Virus record (IMG/VR): IMGVR_UViG_3300032236_000548
Span: 32,001 to 96,000 of that record
Source: a virus
Length of the DNA stretch: 64,000 nucleotides
Strand: one strand, 5' to 3'
Part shown: piece by piece, positions 2,418-32,147 of the stretch
Numbering within the stretch: the first letter of the stretch is position 1
How the letters are laid out: every line of letters starts with the position of its first letter
The notes under the pieces: model-generated
The model's input: only the letters and a program-made list of their open reading frames with translations
Told to the model about the DNA's origin: nothing
Database searches by the model: none
Made by a program: the position numbers and the translations under genes

Positions 2418-3677
2418 ATGATGGATAAAAAAGATACTATATGTGCAATACCGTGGATGCACTTAAATTTCGAACCCAACGGTAAGGTAGTTCCTTGTTG
2501 TTTAACCAGTCACCACAATTATTTTGCAGGTGACTTAAACACACAAACTATTGATGAGATTTGGAATAGCGACAACATGAAATCGTTGCGTAAGCAAATG
2601 ATTAATGGCGAGCGTCCAAAGATTTGTGATACTTGTTGGAACAAAGAAGATGTCACAGGAGTAAGTGGACGGTTTTATCAAAACAGAGACTTTCCAGATG
2701 TTCTTAAAAAGATCCCTGACATTACATTAGAAGACGGTACTTGTACTGAGATGGAGCTCAAGTATTGGGACTTCCGTTTTAGTAACTTGTGTAATTATAA
2801 ATGTCGCAGTTGCGGTCCACGCTATAGTTCTGCATGGGTGCCTGATGCTAAAAAGCTCGGCTACACCGACCAAGAAAAAGTATGGAATATCGAAGCAGTT
2901 GAGAACAAAGCAAACGTCGACTTCCTAGAGGATCAGATAGACACTGTTCGTAGAATTTATTTTGCCGGTGGCGAACCCTTACTCATGGACGAGCACTGGC
3001 AGATACTTGACAAACTAGTAGAACGTAAACGTTTTGATGTTAAGTTAAGTTACAATACTAATGTTAGCACACTAACCTATGGTAAGAAGAATGTAGTTGA
3101 CTATTGGAAACAATGGCAATTAGGTAAACTAGAAGTATGGCCTAGTATTGACGAAATTGGTGAACGTGCTGAATTGATACGCAGTGGTACAGTCTGGAGT
3201 AAAGTAGAAGAAAACTTGAAAGAACTTGCCAAGTACGATAATATCATCTTGCGTCCTGGTATGACTATCGGTGCATGGAACGTTCGTAGACTTCCTACCA
3301 TTATCACATACTTGACCGACTTAGGAGTAGTTCGCCGCCATCCTGAAATTTATCAGTATGTTAACTATAATAATTTCTTTATAAACTTACTAGATCATCC
3401 TAGACATTACCATGTGGGTATTTTACCAGATGGCTACAAAAATGAAACTATCAAAGAGCTAGAAGCATTTGCCGAAGAATACAATAAAAAGTATAATACA
3501 GATATAAGTTCAGTCTTCACACAAATAATACACGAGCTTAAACAGCCTCATGATCCAGAAGCGGCTAAACGATTCTTACATACTACAAAACGTGTAGACG
3601 ATATCAGAGATGAGAAATTCTTTGATGTTGTTCCTGAACTTGCTATCATAAGAGATATGTACCCAGGAGTGTACTAA
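2418..3677 (+). CDS. radical SAM protein with N-terminal SPASM/twitch-like Cys cluster
   Basis: CNYKCRSC (CxxxCxxC) and FAGGEPL; N-terminal C..PW...G.V.PCC...CDTC. Confidence 0.9.
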   Translation: MMDKKDTICAIPWMHLNFEPNGKVVPCCLTSHHNYFAGDLNTQTIDEIWNSDNMKSLRKQMINGERPKICDTCWNKEDVTGVSGRFYQNRDFPDVLKKIPDITLEDGTCTEMELKYWDFRFSNLCNYKCRSCGPRYSSAWVPDAKKLGYTDQEKVWNIEAVENKANVDFLEDQIDTVRRIYFAGGEPLLMDEHWQILDKLVERKRFDVKLSYNTNVSTLTYGKKNVVDYWKQWQLGKLEVWPSIDEIGERAELIRSGTVWSKVEENLKELAKYDNIILRPGMTIGAWNVRRLPTIITYLTDLGVVRRHPEIYQYVNYNNFFINLLDHPRHYHVGILPDGYKNETIKELEAFAEEYNKKYNTDISSVFTQIIHELKQPHDPEAAKRFLHTTKRVDDIRDEKFFDVVPELAIIRDMYPGVY

Positions 3678-3678
3678 T

Positions 3679-4611
3679 ATGAGTACCATTGCTGTATTTG
3701 AAATGATGGATAAGAATCGAACTCCATATGCATTAACGTTCAACTTATACAACTCATCACTGGCCAAACGCTGGCAAGCAATGGTAGAACAAAATGTACA
3801 AGCTCAGCACGAGATTTACGCAAGTTTTATTAACCTTACTTACGACAGGCTTCCTGAAGTATTAGAAGAGCTTAATGAAATGGTTGCTATAATTAATCGC
3901 AACTATGATAAAAAGTTACCCGAGTTTATTAGCACAGAAATTTTAGATCAGCAAATCTTAAATGACTTGCATGAAGAGTACGAAGTGTACGGCGGTAGAA
4001 TCGATCAATTCGAATCTAAAAAATTACACGCAAGTTTTTTAAGATTAAACGAATTGATTCATGCTTGTGAAGAAATGACTGCAACCAAGGATAAGAAGTT
4101 TATCCCCATGAGTGCGCTAATCGACTATTACCCACAGGGCATACACGAGCCTTTGAAGGATCAGGATAAAGTATACCTAACTACAGACTTCAATTGGGGC
4201 AAGTTGTATCTAGGGTATAACACCTTAGGAAAAGATTGGTTAGAAGTGCAACGTCATAACGACTTAGATGTTATACTGAGAAATCAAGTTCGTAAGCAAG
4301 AAAGATTTGCCGCCGAATGTTGGTTAAACTTTACACAAGACGATACGTGTAAGTGGAATGCAACTCAGTTTGAAAAGTGGTATGATAAGTTATCTCCCGA
4401 GATACAAGCACAAGTTCCCGTAGACGACATGTCTGCGCTGGCATTAGGCAGATATGAAATTGGAACACTAGAGATTACAGAAAATTTCTTAGAATACCAC
4501 AATAACAAATCTGATTGGTTAGTTCCAGAACATCCGATAAAAGCAAAGTGGAACAAAGAAGTGTTTTCCACATTTAAAATAGTCAAGAGCATTAAGTTCA
4601 TAAATGTCTAA
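3679..4611 (+). CDS. hypothetical protein in the radical SAM cluster
   Basis: 310-aa ORF tightly packed between two radical SAM genes. Confidence 0.75.
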   Translation: MSTIAVFEMMDKNRTPYALTFNLYNSSLAKRWQAMVEQNVQAQHEIYASFINLTYDRLPEVLEELNEMVAIINRNYDKKLPEFISTEILDQQILNDLHEEYEVYGGRIDQFESKKLHASFLRLNELIHACEEMTATKDKKFIPMSALIDYYPQGIHEPLKDQDKVYLTTDFNWGKLYLGYNTLGKDWLEVQRHNDLDVILRNQVRKQERFAAECWLNFTQDDTCKWNATQFEKWYDKLSPEIQAQVPVDDMSALALGRYEIGTLEITENFLEYHNNKSDWLVPEHPIKAKWNKEVFSTFKIVKSIKFINV

Positions 4612-5533
4612 AATTATAGAAATAAAACAGCACACTCCTGACTTATATTTGACTTGGGTCATTAATAATATATGCACCAACAAATGTAGTTACTGCCCAC
4701 CTAACCTACACAACGGTACTAACCATAACTACGAATGGGAACAGGCTGAAGCATTTATACAAGAGTTACTTAAACGCTATCCTAAAATACAACTAGCTAT
4801 CAGCGGTGGCGAACCAACACTAAGTCCATTTCTTAAAGACATGGTTAAAATGTTTAGTGATGCTGGGCATCCAGTAGGCATGACTACAAACGGTGCTAGA
4901 ACTGTAAGATACTTTGAAGAAATTTCTCAGTATATGAGCTACATTGTTATGAGCTACCATCCAAGTTTTGAAGACCCTGAGTTGTTAGAAAAGGCATTAG
5001 CCTGCGCCCAACATACAAAAACAACTGTAGCTGTTATGATGGATAGTAGACATTTTGATCAAAGTCTAGCAATGTATTATAAATTACGTACATATGATGT
5101 GTTACAAGTAGAGCCTTGGAGAATTACTCCTTGGATTAAAAATAATACAGTAGGATGCGACTACACTGAAGATCAGCTACGGATACTTAGTTCATTATCA
5201 ACCAAAGAAATGAATAACCCAGTTGTGCCAAAAAATGAAGGAACAATGGGTGCAACCTTTTATTTCGAAGATGGATCTGAGCAAAACAGTAACGCACAAG
5301 ATTTAATTAATGAAAAGCTCACTAACTTTTATGGTTGGGAGTGTGACATCGGACTTAATAGTTTATATGTAAGGTTAGACGGCGGAGTACGGTTGGGTAA
5401 CTGTATTAGCTCTAGCTACATAGGAAATATACAAAATTATAAAGATATACAATGGCCGACAAAATCGTTTATATGTCCGCAGACATTCTGCCATTGCACA
5501 ACTGACGTATACGTATCAAAGAGACCAGTATGA
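4604..5533 (+). CDS. radical SAM protein with C-terminal twitch-like Cys cluster
   Basis: CTNKCSYC, SGGEPTL and TTNG; C-terminal CDIG...NC...CPQTFCHC. Confidence 0.9.
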   Translation: MSKIIEIKQHTPDLYLTWVINNICTNKCSYCPPNLHNGTNHNYEWEQAEAFIQELLKRYPKIQLAISGGEPTLSPFLKDMVKMFSDAGHPVGMTTNGARTVRYFEEISQYMSYIVMSYHPSFEDPELLEKALACAQHTKTTVAVMMDSRHFDQSLAMYYKLRTYDVLQVEPWRITPWIKNNTVGCDYTEDQLRILSSLSTKEMNNPVVPKNEGTMGATFYFEDGSEQNSNAQDLINEKLTNFYGWECDIGLNSLYVRLDGGVRLGNCISSSYIGNIQNYKDIQWPTKSFICPQTFCHCTTDVYVSKRPV

Positions 5534-9117: not shown

Positions 9118-9453
9118 ATGGGACCTATTACCCGAGAACTATACAAACAAATTAAAGGCTGGAGGATCTACTCTGTTATCGCTCCGGCACTATTTTGTGC
9201 GAGTGCGGCTTTATTGTATCTAAAATACGGAACTCCCTTCCAATCAATTTTTTTCACAGGCTTGATTGTTTTGAGTGTAACTTGTATTAGTTGGTGGCAT
9301 TGGAGCCTTTCGACTATGGTTACCATGCTTGCCATTATGAAAGATACCGACGACCACTTTAAAGAAGTTGCTGAAAAATTGGAGCAACTACGTATCCAAA
9401 ATGGTGGCAGACCTGAATTAAAATTAGTCAAACCCGTTGACAACGATAAGTAA
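9118..9453 (+). CDS. two-TM membrane protein
   Basis: Two hydrophobic segments and a charged tail; TAAATA at 9089-9094 upstream. Confidence 0.7.
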   Translation: MGPITRELYKQIKGWRIYSVIAPALFCASAALLYLKYGTPFQSIFFTGLIVLSVTCISWWHWSLSTMVTMLAIMKDTDDHFKEVAEKLEQLRIQNGGRPELKLVKPVDNDK

Positions 9454-9464
9454 GAGTATATAAT
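9437..9464 (+). promoter_or_regulatory. consensus sigma70 promoter for queD
   Basis: TTGACA (9437-9442), 16 nt, TATAAT (9459-9464). Confidence 0.8.
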
Positions 9465-9470
9465 AGTTAT

Positions 9471-9517
9471 ATTGCGGCCTTAGACGCTCATCCCGCATTA
9501 TAAATTCTGCGTGTCAT
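9471..9517 (+). ncRNA. candidate preQ1-I-like riboswitch / H-type pseudoknot in the queD leader
   Basis: P1 TGCGG (9473-77) pairs with CCGCA (9493-97); 15-nt loop ending CATC; A-rich tail TTATAAA; downstream GCGT/GTGTC can pair with loop GACGC; lies between the promoter and queD. Confidence 0.5.
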
Positions 9518-9539
9518 TGCTAAATCTTAGGAGATAACA

Positions 9540-10046
9540 ATGGCAAATTTACAACCGGTTGCTTACAAATATCAAAGCACAAAAGAATATGTAGACGCAT
9601 TTCCATGCGCCTATAGACAGTGGAGGGCAGATAGCCACTGTAATTTGATCCATGGATATGCTTTTAGCATGAAGTTCTATTTTGGGACTAACGACTTAGA
9701 CGTTCGTAATTGGGCGGCTGATTACGGTGGATTAAAAGAACTCAAAAGTATGCTAGAAGATCAATTTGATCACACTTTATTGGTAAGTGAAGATGATCCA
9801 GAATTGGCTACTTACAAACTGCTACAAGAAAAGAAATTGGCTAAACTAACTATCCTACCTCGTTTAGGATGCGAAGGTTTAGCAGACATGCTGTACAAGT
9901 ATGTAAACGGTGTTTACATTCCAGACATGTGGGGACAAGGCGAAGCCGATCGCTTATGGTGCTACCGTGTGGAAGTTAGAGAAACTCAAAGTAATATGGC
10001 ATTTAGAGAAGGGCACCGCGAGTGGAATGAGGATCTTCTTTCGTAA
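9540..10046 (+). CDS. queD: 6-pyruvoyl-tetrahydropterin synthase / QueD-like protein
   Basis: SHCNLIHGY, DYGGLKELK...FDHTLL, GCEGLA and VRET motifs of the PTPS/QueD T-fold; AGGAG SD. Confidence 0.85.
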   Translation: MANLQPVAYKYQSTKEYVDAFPCAYRQWRADSHCNLIHGYAFSMKFYFGTNDLDVRNWAADYGGLKELKSMLEDQFDHTLLVSEDDPELATYKLLQEKKLAKLTILPRLGCEGLADMLYKYVNGVYIPDMWGQGEADRLWCYRVEVRETQSNMAFREGHREWNEDLLS

Positions 10047-10197
10047 ATTTTGGCGCATTTGGGCCAAAGCGTTAGGTGAAAAAGCAGGCAAAACGGACGA
10101 GGAATCGGACCGAATTGCTTGCATTCGAACCCTAATTGTGTTATCATATGTACTTACAAACACTTTTATAATCGCAGGCGTCATAAGGCATTGGTAA
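10027..10197 (+). CDS. small membrane protein
   Basis: MRIFFRKFWRIWAKALGEKAG...IRTLIVLSYVLTNTFIIAGVIRHW; its stop overlaps the uvsE ATG (TAATG). Confidence 0.65.
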   Translation: MRIFFRKFWRIWAKALGEKAGKTDEESDRIACIRTLIVLSYVLTNTFIIAGVIRHW

Positions 10198-31586: not shown

Positions 31587-32147
31587 ATGACAAGAGCATA
31601 CTATAGAAGAATAACTGGATCTACAATGCAAGGTGACGGCGGCCAAGTTGCTGAAAAAGCTGGCACCTTGGTAGTCAATGCAGACGGTACACTACACCTA
31701 CACGATGGGAGTACATCCGGTGGATTGCCTCTAGTGGTAGACAGTGATTGGGTAAATCCCAACGATCATACTTGGAAGATACGTACCTACAACGATGGGG
31801 CCGCTGTGAGTTTTGATGGCACTACACCTGTGGTATGGTTTGATGTGGCTAATAGCCCATCGGGCCTAGATCAGTTCCGCGGTGCTATTATTGAGTATCA
31901 CGCTTTTACCAGTCAAGGAACAATAGTTGGAACTATTCACATAGCCGACGATTATCAACCAGGGGATGCTTTTACGCACACTGAACATATGAGTGGCAGT
32001 CCCAATCTACAAACAGTACATCTTTGGGGCCCAGATGTTAGCTTGACTCGCGGGCGCCTATGTTTCAAGCGCACAGATGGACAAGCTGCCACACTAATGA
32101 TACAGTGGACCGCTAAGATATTCTACGGCTACGAAGCTGACTGCTAA
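31587..32147 (+). CDS. tail-fibre-associated protein
   Basis: L.LHDG.T.GG module; C-terminus (KRTDG...QWTAKIF...C) resembles that of 27196..31569. Confidence 0.65.
   Translation: MTRAYYRRITGSTMQGDGGQVAEKAGTLVVNADGTLHLHDGSTSGGLPLVVDSDWVNPNDHTWKIRTYNDGAAVSFDGTTPVVWFDVANSPSGLDQFRGAIIEYHAFTSQGTIVGTIHIADDYQPGDAFTHTEHMSGSPNLQTVHLWGPDVSLTRGRLCFKRTDGQAATLMIQWTAKIFYGYEADC

Follow-up and report, generated by a model that had tools for sequence, protein, structure and literature searches.

The stretch of DNA analysed here, referred to as the window, comprises 64,000 nucleotides (positions 32,001 to 96,000) of the IMG/VR virus record IMGVR_UViG_3300032236_000548. The complete record is 104,655 bases long, has a completeness estimate of 28% and carries baseplate and virion genes. 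Within this DNA of an uncultured giant phage we examined the 70-base leader of a queD-like gene, for which a preQ1-I-like riboswitch candidate had been proposed from the sequence alone (the original prediction). An H-type pseudoknot of 43 nucleotides (window 9473-9515) lies directly behind the promoter and ahead of the queD-like gene. The features of the locus are as follows.

9437-9464, plus strand: σ70-type promoter with the -35 box TTGACA (9437-9442), a 16-nucleotide spacer and the -10 box TATAAT (9459-9464), 12 of 12 consensus positions matched; predicted transcript start at about 9471
9473-9477, plus strand: 5' strand of helix P1 (5 base pairs), partner 9493-9497, enclosing a 15-nucleotide loop
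9478-9482, plus strand: loop 1, with a variable first nucleotide, near-invariant C9479 and U9480, then a spacer that varies from 0 to 8 nucleotides among relatives
9483-9487, plus strand: 5' strand of helix P2, within the P1 loop, partner 9511-9515
9488-9492, plus strand: loop 2 (UCAUC), its last nucleotide being the invariant C9492 at the position of the preQ1-I specificity base
9493-9497, plus strand: 3' strand of P1, with covariation in both leader sets described below
9498-9510, plus strand: loop 3 (13 nucleotides), an A-rich part (A9500, A9502-9504) followed by near-invariant U9506-C9510
9511-9515, plus strand: 3' strand of P2, with covariation, also used by the sequestering helix
9512-9519, plus strand: 5' strand of the sequestering helix, overlapping the P2 3' strand at 9512-9515; part of the minimum-free-energy fold
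9529-9533, plus strand: Shine-Dalgarno sequence AGGAG as read from the sequence, in the loop of the sequestering helix, 14 nucleotides past P2
9538-9545, plus strand: 3' strand of the sequestering helix, consisting of two bases, the ATG (9540-9542) and codon 2
9540-10046, plus strand: gene for a QueD-like 6-carboxy/6-pyruvoyl-tetrahydropterin synthase of 168 amino acids (PF01242, phrog_2389)
10027-10197, plus strand: small open reading frame of 56 amino acids, overlapping the end of queD, with a hydrophobic C-terminal stretch

The perfect σ70 promoter with its start near 9471, the five-pair stem, the A-rich tail and the AGGAG ahead of queD are indeed all present where the original prediction had placed them. 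In the pseudoknot that it had proposed for the loop segment GACGC, the pairing with GUGUC (9511-9515) stands, whereas that with the overlapping GCGU does not. Among 165 related leaders, 40 have a σ70 promoter that matches at least 10 of 12 consensus positions and whose -10 box ends 6-9 nucleotides before P1, and 78 have a late-type TAAATA/TAAGTA motif that mostly ends 5-11 nucleotides before P1. The pseudoknot, which we regard as a putative aptamer, begins at the predicted transcript start in most of the leaders.

The pseudoknot is held by compensating changes in about 150 distinct leaders of related uncultured phages. A search of IMG/VR for relatives of the QueD-like protein returned at least 597 loci, the best 80 of which show 84-93% protein identity, and nearly all of these 80 carry the same leader. 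A covariance model built from 13 window-like leaders, with P2 as its structure, yielded 80 matches in these loci and the window. Two sets of leaders were compared. Set A5 (68 distinct rows) contains leaders collected via QueD, and set A7 (99 matches, 89 distinct rows) contains leaders collected with a DNA pattern that was independent of queD, left all P2 positions free and did not use most of the variable positions in P1. In set A5, 97.7% of the P1 and P2 cells are paired and 8 of the 10 pairs change on both sides; none of 500 shuffles gave a value as high, and sliding the partner strand left only 38-51% paired. The corresponding values for set A7 are 96.1% paired and 7 of 10 pairs changing on both sides, again with 0 of 500 shuffles as high. 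P1 is paired in 99.4-99.5% of cells (A5 and A7), with exchanges between AU and UA, between GC and CG, and among CG, UA and AU. In P2, all five pairs change on both sides, and 26 distinct strand pairs occur in 63 sequences. Covariation among related queD leaders had been named as a check on the original prediction, and both helices are kept with compensating changes in the two sets. Comparative sequence analysis therefore confirms a conserved pseudoknotted leader RNA at window 9473-9515.

The unpaired nucleotides behave differently from P2. In the queD-selected set of 63 distinct leaders, every position of loop 2 is 95-100% conserved (C9492 100%, U9491 95%). C9479 and U9480 in loop 1 are each conserved at 97%, while the first position of this loop is A, C or U in 17, 19 and 26 sequences, respectively. 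In loop 3, A9500, A9502, A9504 and 9506-9510 (UCUGC) are 94-100% conserved. Near-invariant loops combined with a P2 that is free to vary represent the pattern expected of an aptamer that forms a binding pocket.

The nested-fold energy of the leader lies within the range of shuffled sequences (z = -0.86), as would be the case for a chance hairpin, or for a region whose conservation is owed only to the promoter or to neighbouring coding sequence. The case for structure is consequently carried wholly by comparison. The covariation counts refute this explanation, since compensatory changes occur in both helices and in two independent sets, at levels not reached in any of 500 shuffles. Moreover, the element is intergenic, and the RNA has been kept in lineages with different types of promoter. 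We therefore attach next to no probability to a chance origin.

The association of the element with queD is close. The record that holds the window and five large relatives, two of which are complete with terminal repeats, have one copy per genome, always 5' of the queD-like gene; no second copies or other gene contexts were found in these six large or complete genomes. Among motifs that were found by pattern and without using queD, 116 of 125 are immediately followed by a queD-like gene. The nine others comprise four contig ends, one queD whose Shine-Dalgarno sequence was missed by the script, three cases with one extra open reading frame before queD, and one divergent gene for a PTPS-like protein of 306 amino acids. 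Neighbouring genes were counted in 206 loci with fetched flanks of a few kb. FolE was present in 75 of them and QueE in 66, and a PF02592 (YhhQ-family) transporter in 12, nearly always directly after queD. In complete relatives, FolE and a QueE-like radical-SAM enzyme are encoded close to queD. Taken together, the queD-like gene, the FolE, QueE and transporter neighbours and a protein motif of the type found in Pseudomonas phage Iggy (see below) indicate that, judged by gene content, the context is 7-deazaguanine metabolism. The link to que genes made in the original prediction is thereby upheld.

The gene context and the fold raise the question of how the leader relates to the preQ1-I riboswitches. 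These form an H-type knot with a G-C closing pair and have a specificity C before the P1 3' strand, which is preceded by U in type I and by A in types II and III (PMC11625349). A U or UU follows the P1 5' strand, and loop 3 is A-rich, its last A reading the ligand (PMC11625349). Their Shine-Dalgarno bases or a terminator strand lie within P2 or adjoin it, and their output is repression; indeed, all tabulated representative preQ1 riboswitches repress (PMC11625349). The examples considered were types I-III, B. subtilis queC, T. tengcongensis, C. antarcticum and E. coli, and the family is RF00522 in Rfam. The leader might accordingly be a true but divergent preQ1-I riboswitch whose ligand is preQ1 or preQ0 and which exerts end-product feedback by repressing queD. 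This view is supported by the layout, which the original prediction had recognised in part: the RNA is a minimal H-type pseudoknot (about 35-45 nucleotides) with a five-pair P1 closed by G-C, its P1 3' strand comes straight after an invariant C with a U in front of it, the type I form of this site (PMC11625349), and loop 3 has an A-rich stretch, here predicted to lie along P1. It also stands 5' of queuosine/7-deazaguanine genes, and queD together with a YhhQ-family transporter is the classic preQ1 regulon.

However, searches with the catalogued families do not support membership. With Rfam 15 at gathering thresholds, no family matched anywhere in the window, and none reached its gathering score on 20 diverse relatives; at E ≤ 10, positions 9380-9620 gave nothing relevant and one chance snoRNA match. 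The RF00522 model (gathering threshold 39 bits) gave no match at the motif when run at E ≤ 10 on the 104-kb record itself. Its weak matches elsewhere on that record reached 13.5, 12.1 and 9.3 bits, and the top two, near 13.1-13.2 kb, lie inside a coding region for 421 amino acids and are therefore noise. The details of the RNA differ as well. In place of the U or UU that contacts the ligand, the P1 5' strand has behind it one variable nucleotide and then an invariant CU, and the 13-nucleotide loop 3 ends in invariant UCUGC instead of a ligand-contacting A. P2 has 4-7 base pairs of free sequence and does not contain the Shine-Dalgarno sequence. Its 3' strand competes with a helix that sequesters the AUG or the Shine-Dalgarno sequence, so that formation of P2 is predicted to free the AUG and the predicted output is ON instead of repression. 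Lastly, the phage leader was found on phage-like contigs only. As the leader has neither the U behind P1, nor the A at the end of loop 3, nor a Shine-Dalgarno sequence within P2, and as it does not reach the model score, we do not regard it as a member of preQ1-I, and we consider control of queD by a divergent preQ1-I riboswitch to be improbable. The caution in the original prediction that this might be a variant class was thus justified. No description of the motif was found in the full-text literature, subscription-only papers being outside this search, or in Rfam 15. As far as sequence can tell, the leader RNA is a preQ1-I-type knot outside the preQ1-I family and in no catalogued RNA family.

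We then considered how the pseudoknot could control expression. The leaders sort into three platform classes, with the window in class A. Classes A and C share one arrangement: a segment made up of nucleotides 2-5 of the P2 3' strand and the 3-4 nucleotides that follow it pairs with the start codon, the bases immediately ahead of it and codon 2. Measured in 75 leaders, this sequestering helix is 88.4% paired, a value not reached in any of 500 shuffles, and slid partners give 27-65%. At one of its pairs 46 leaders have CG and 23 have UA, and its eighth pair is confined to class A. In class B, the last two nucleotides of the P2 3' strand start a hairpin with a 3' arm that covers the beginning of the Shine-Dalgarno sequence. 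P2 and the sequestering helix are mutually exclusive in every class, and in the window they overlap in four of the five P2 3' nucleotides. A partition-function model was used to compare the free fold with a fold from which the aptamer was withheld. In this model, the unpaired probability of the AUG rises from 0.10 to 0.53 in class A and from 0.05 to 0.32 in class C, and that of the Shine-Dalgarno sequence in class B rises from 0.31 to 0.77. In the window, P2 has a duplex energy of -4.4 kcal/mol and the sequestering helix one of -7.7 kcal/mol. As the sequestering helix is the stronger of the two, the default state should be closed, and the structure predicts that the leader acts as a translational ON switch. 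The original prediction had the leader tune the pathway; tuning by feedback repression does not agree with a platform that predicts ON and not OFF. The hairpin loop of class B was also seen to keep the sequence TGnTAnnnT, in which only tolerated -10 positions vary (columns 13-21 of alignment A9, for example L033:2964-3011). This sequence could be an internal extended -10 promoter giving rise to transcripts without the aptamer and the 5' arm.

The leader thus shows the generic hallmarks of a riboswitch, namely covarying helices, conserved unpaired nucleotides and a mutually exclusive expression platform. It resembles the small H-type riboswitches SAM-II, SAM-V, guanidine-III and NAD+-II, which are likewise compact pseudoknots, have conserved nucleotides in their loops and act on translation through nucleotides that adjoin the knot, but it has no sequence or model match to them in Rfam 15 and another gene association. 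We propose that translation of the queD-like gene is controlled by a two-state switch at window 9473-9545, and that this switch most likely represents a new class of riboswitches whose fold resembles that of preQ1-I; to this reading we assign a probability of roughly 55%. The 43-nucleotide pseudoknot, with which the mRNA begins, would serve as the sensor. Without a stabilising ligand, the sequestering helix would prevail (about -7.7 versus -4.4 kcal/mol), the AUG would be hidden and translation would be off. A ligand placed between P1 and P2, probably by pairing with C9492, would lock P2, upon which the sequestering helix would dissolve, the AUG would become exposed and translation would be switched on. 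The ligand and tertiary contacts would add the stability that opens the closed state. Both helices, their covariation, the fact that they exclude each other and the tie to queD are shown by the present data; from these we infer binding of a small molecule, the ON direction and, as ligand, a guanine-like heterocycle of the 7-deazaguanine or pterin pathway. Candidates are the substrate or product of QueD, a 7-deazaguanine intermediate, and guanine.

The proposed switch is supported by the finding that three different platforms all pair the 3' end of P2 with the AUG or the Shine-Dalgarno sequence. Several observations weigh against it. An ON switch on a biosynthetic gene, which sometimes is accompanied by the importer of a precursor, is the opposite of end-product feedback. 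The two energies given above are duplex energies and not pseudoknot energies, and, as already mentioned, the nested-fold energy is unremarkable. Both alignments had been fitted to P2 by the covariance model, P1 not being fitted. Finally, the leaders seem to undergo recombination, as indicated by 44 changes of platform class on the QueD tree and by the insertion of a homing endonuclease, so that event counts are uncertain.

An alternative explanation is that the switch is worked by no metabolite at all, and that the leader is a protein-binding operator like that of T4 gene 32 or those of ribosomal proteins, an RNA thermometer or a co-transcriptional timing device. Pseudoknot operators in 5' leaders are known in T4-type phages. 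As in the T4 gene 32 leader, the phage mRNA begins with an H-type pseudoknot, which here would govern downstream translation. The late-type TAAATA motif that lies just upstream in many relatives points in the same direction, and so does the TGnTAnnnT sequence of class B, which through transcripts without aptamer could suggest control by stage rather than by ligand. However, in T4 it is the single-strand-binding protein encoded by the gene itself whose binding is nucleated by the knot, whereas the product regulated here is an enzyme of the PTPS/QueD family and not a nucleic-acid-binding protein, and the present knot competes with a start-codon helix. Furthermore, about 20 unpaired nucleotides are near-invariant across very different P2 helices and three platforms, which is typical of a small-molecule pocket, and the element strictly accompanies a single enzyme gene from a single pathway instead of a temporal gene class. 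A metabolite-independent device therefore appears possible but rather unlikely.

To our knowledge, riboswitch classes are few and none is virus-specific. On this background we tentatively advance a bolder view, in which we have somewhat less confidence than in the switch itself: the leaders may be the first member-rich riboswitch class that is confined to viruses, a preQ1-I-like knot rewired to ON whose ligand would be a guanine-like metabolite (for example free guanine, an intermediate of 7-deazaguanine synthesis or the pterin that QueD takes as substrate) and which would thereby time the FolE-QueD-QueE deazapurine pathway of giant freshwater phages. If this is true, a sensor of 43 nucleotides that keeps the preQ1-I fold but has an altered pocket and the reverse output would represent a re-use of the smallest riboswitch scaffold, and it would offer a compact ON switch for engineering. 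In abundant uncultured giant phages the motif marks the presence of a deazapurine pathway (FolE, QueD, QueE, in some cases a YhhQ-type transporter, with no QueC or DpdA detected), and identifying the ligand would give a clue to what this pathway makes and what it is for. Owing to its small size, the leader RNA lends itself to direct binding assays with a few compounds that are available commercially or enzymatically.

The distribution of the motif was examined in cultured phages and in prokaryotic genomes. The DNA showed no similarity to any of 50,697 cultured phage records, and the covariance model found nothing in the queD loci of the five cultured phages Iggy, ACP17, X1, R5C and Phosso. Therefore, no cultured carrier is known. 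When one genome for each of 185,579 prokaryote species was searched, the pattern matched in five places. All five are true matches and are located on contigs of 4-8 kb from metagenome-assembled genomes (L086-L090), four of which belong to Bacteroidota bins (Crocinitomicaceae, Chitinophagales, uncultured Bacteroidetes) and one to a Nitrospira bin. These contigs are probably mis-binned phage DNA, and they give a weak hint of Bacteroidota as hosts.

The QueD-like protein matches PF01242 (E = 1.5e-14) and phrog_2389 (E = 6.5e-35), and scores 31.6 bits against the QueD equivalog TIGR03367, for which the cut-off is 89. The closest QueD of a cultured phage is 53% identical. The protein (window 9540-10046) has the motif C-x3-H-G-Y in common with the QueD of Pseudomonas phage Iggy (L212:7001-7459), where E. 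coli QueD presumably has C-x3-H-G-H. In both phage proteins a tyrosine also occupies what we take to be the position of the first zinc-binding histidine. As Iggy QueD shares both features, they appear to be a trait of a phage QueD clade. The DNA of phage Iggy is reported to carry dPreQ0 (PMC10484667).

The most extended gene order was seen in a complete relative of 364 kb (L211; G001:15001-31000, minus strand), where FolE, an HhH-GPD glycosylase-like protein, a HIT protein, the motif, queD and a PF02592 YhhQ-family transporter are followed by a 289-amino acid protein of no assigned family, a B12-binding radical-SAM protein of 660 amino acids, a 236-amino acid protein likewise of no assigned family and the QueE-like protein. 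For QueC there were only sub-threshold PP-loop matches, and no QueC was detected in two complete relatives. In the same two genomes TGT/DpdA gave no Pfam match and no match to Iggy DpdA, although very divergent forms could escape such searches. The premise of the original prediction that QueD serves DNA modification is therefore not borne out by these two relatives, which possess FolE, QueD and QueE. The FolE-QueD-QueE pathway may stop at 7-carboxy-7-deazaguanine (CDG) or may use enzymes that have yet to be recognised.

Two radical-SAM genes are located in the window at 2418-5533. One encodes a protein of 419 amino acids of the twitch-domain type (NF033640, 380 bits) and the other a protein of 309 amino acids. 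The latter was considered as a QueE and rejected, as it shows no similarity to the QueE-like protein of the relatives and has generic radical-SAM scores only; the 419-amino acid protein is likewise not the QueE-like protein of the relatives. A reading of QueD as part of pterin or ultraviolet-protection functions, based on its position beside UvdE and superoxide dismutase, was set aside after QueE and the YhhQ-type transporter had been found in relatives.

The small open reading frame of 56 amino acids overlaps the last 20 nucleotides of queD in the window. It and its relatives occur in 69 of the 206 loci, with the locus of the window among them, on the same strand and always downstream of queD, mostly directly after it or overlapping with it, and in 12 other loci its place is occupied by the PF02592 transporter. 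No Pfam match was obtained for it. Its sequence suggests a small membrane protein, which is probably co-translated with queD.

Loop 3 may also make a tertiary contact with P1. Positions 4 and 6 of loop 3 (window 9501 and 9503) covary with the middle P1 pair (9475-9495). Of 88 leaders in which this pair is C-G, 83 have a pyrimidine at position 4, and all 46 leaders with U-A or A-U have an A there. On the QueD tree, about 9.5 independent contrasts go in the same direction and 0 in the opposite one (p ~0.004). These covariations are suggestive of a base triple between loop 3 and the middle P1 pair, and they are no proof of it, as the sites are at most 10 nucleotides apart and the leaders seem to recombine.

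Lastly, three loci have unusual leaders. The QueD relative at L012:2850-3010 is 90% identical and has no aptamer, its gene being preceded by a σ70-like promoter and a short plain leader; it is a natural aptamer deletion that could act as an unregulated control. At L199:2660-3650, a divergent motif with a loop 2 ending in CACC and a four-pair P2 lies 5' of a gene for a protein of 306 amino acids, twice the usual length, which has an N-terminal PTPS/QueD-like region. At the third locus (L009:2215-2824), an open reading frame for a homing-endonuclease-like protein of 183 amino acids with a NUMOD3 motif is inserted in the queD leader. On its 5' side are an orphaned promoter, P1 and the loop of an older aptamer copy that is cut just past the P1 3' strand, and on its 3' side is a complete aptamer of another P1 type. 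This arrangement suggests an endonuclease-driven swapping of leader variants.

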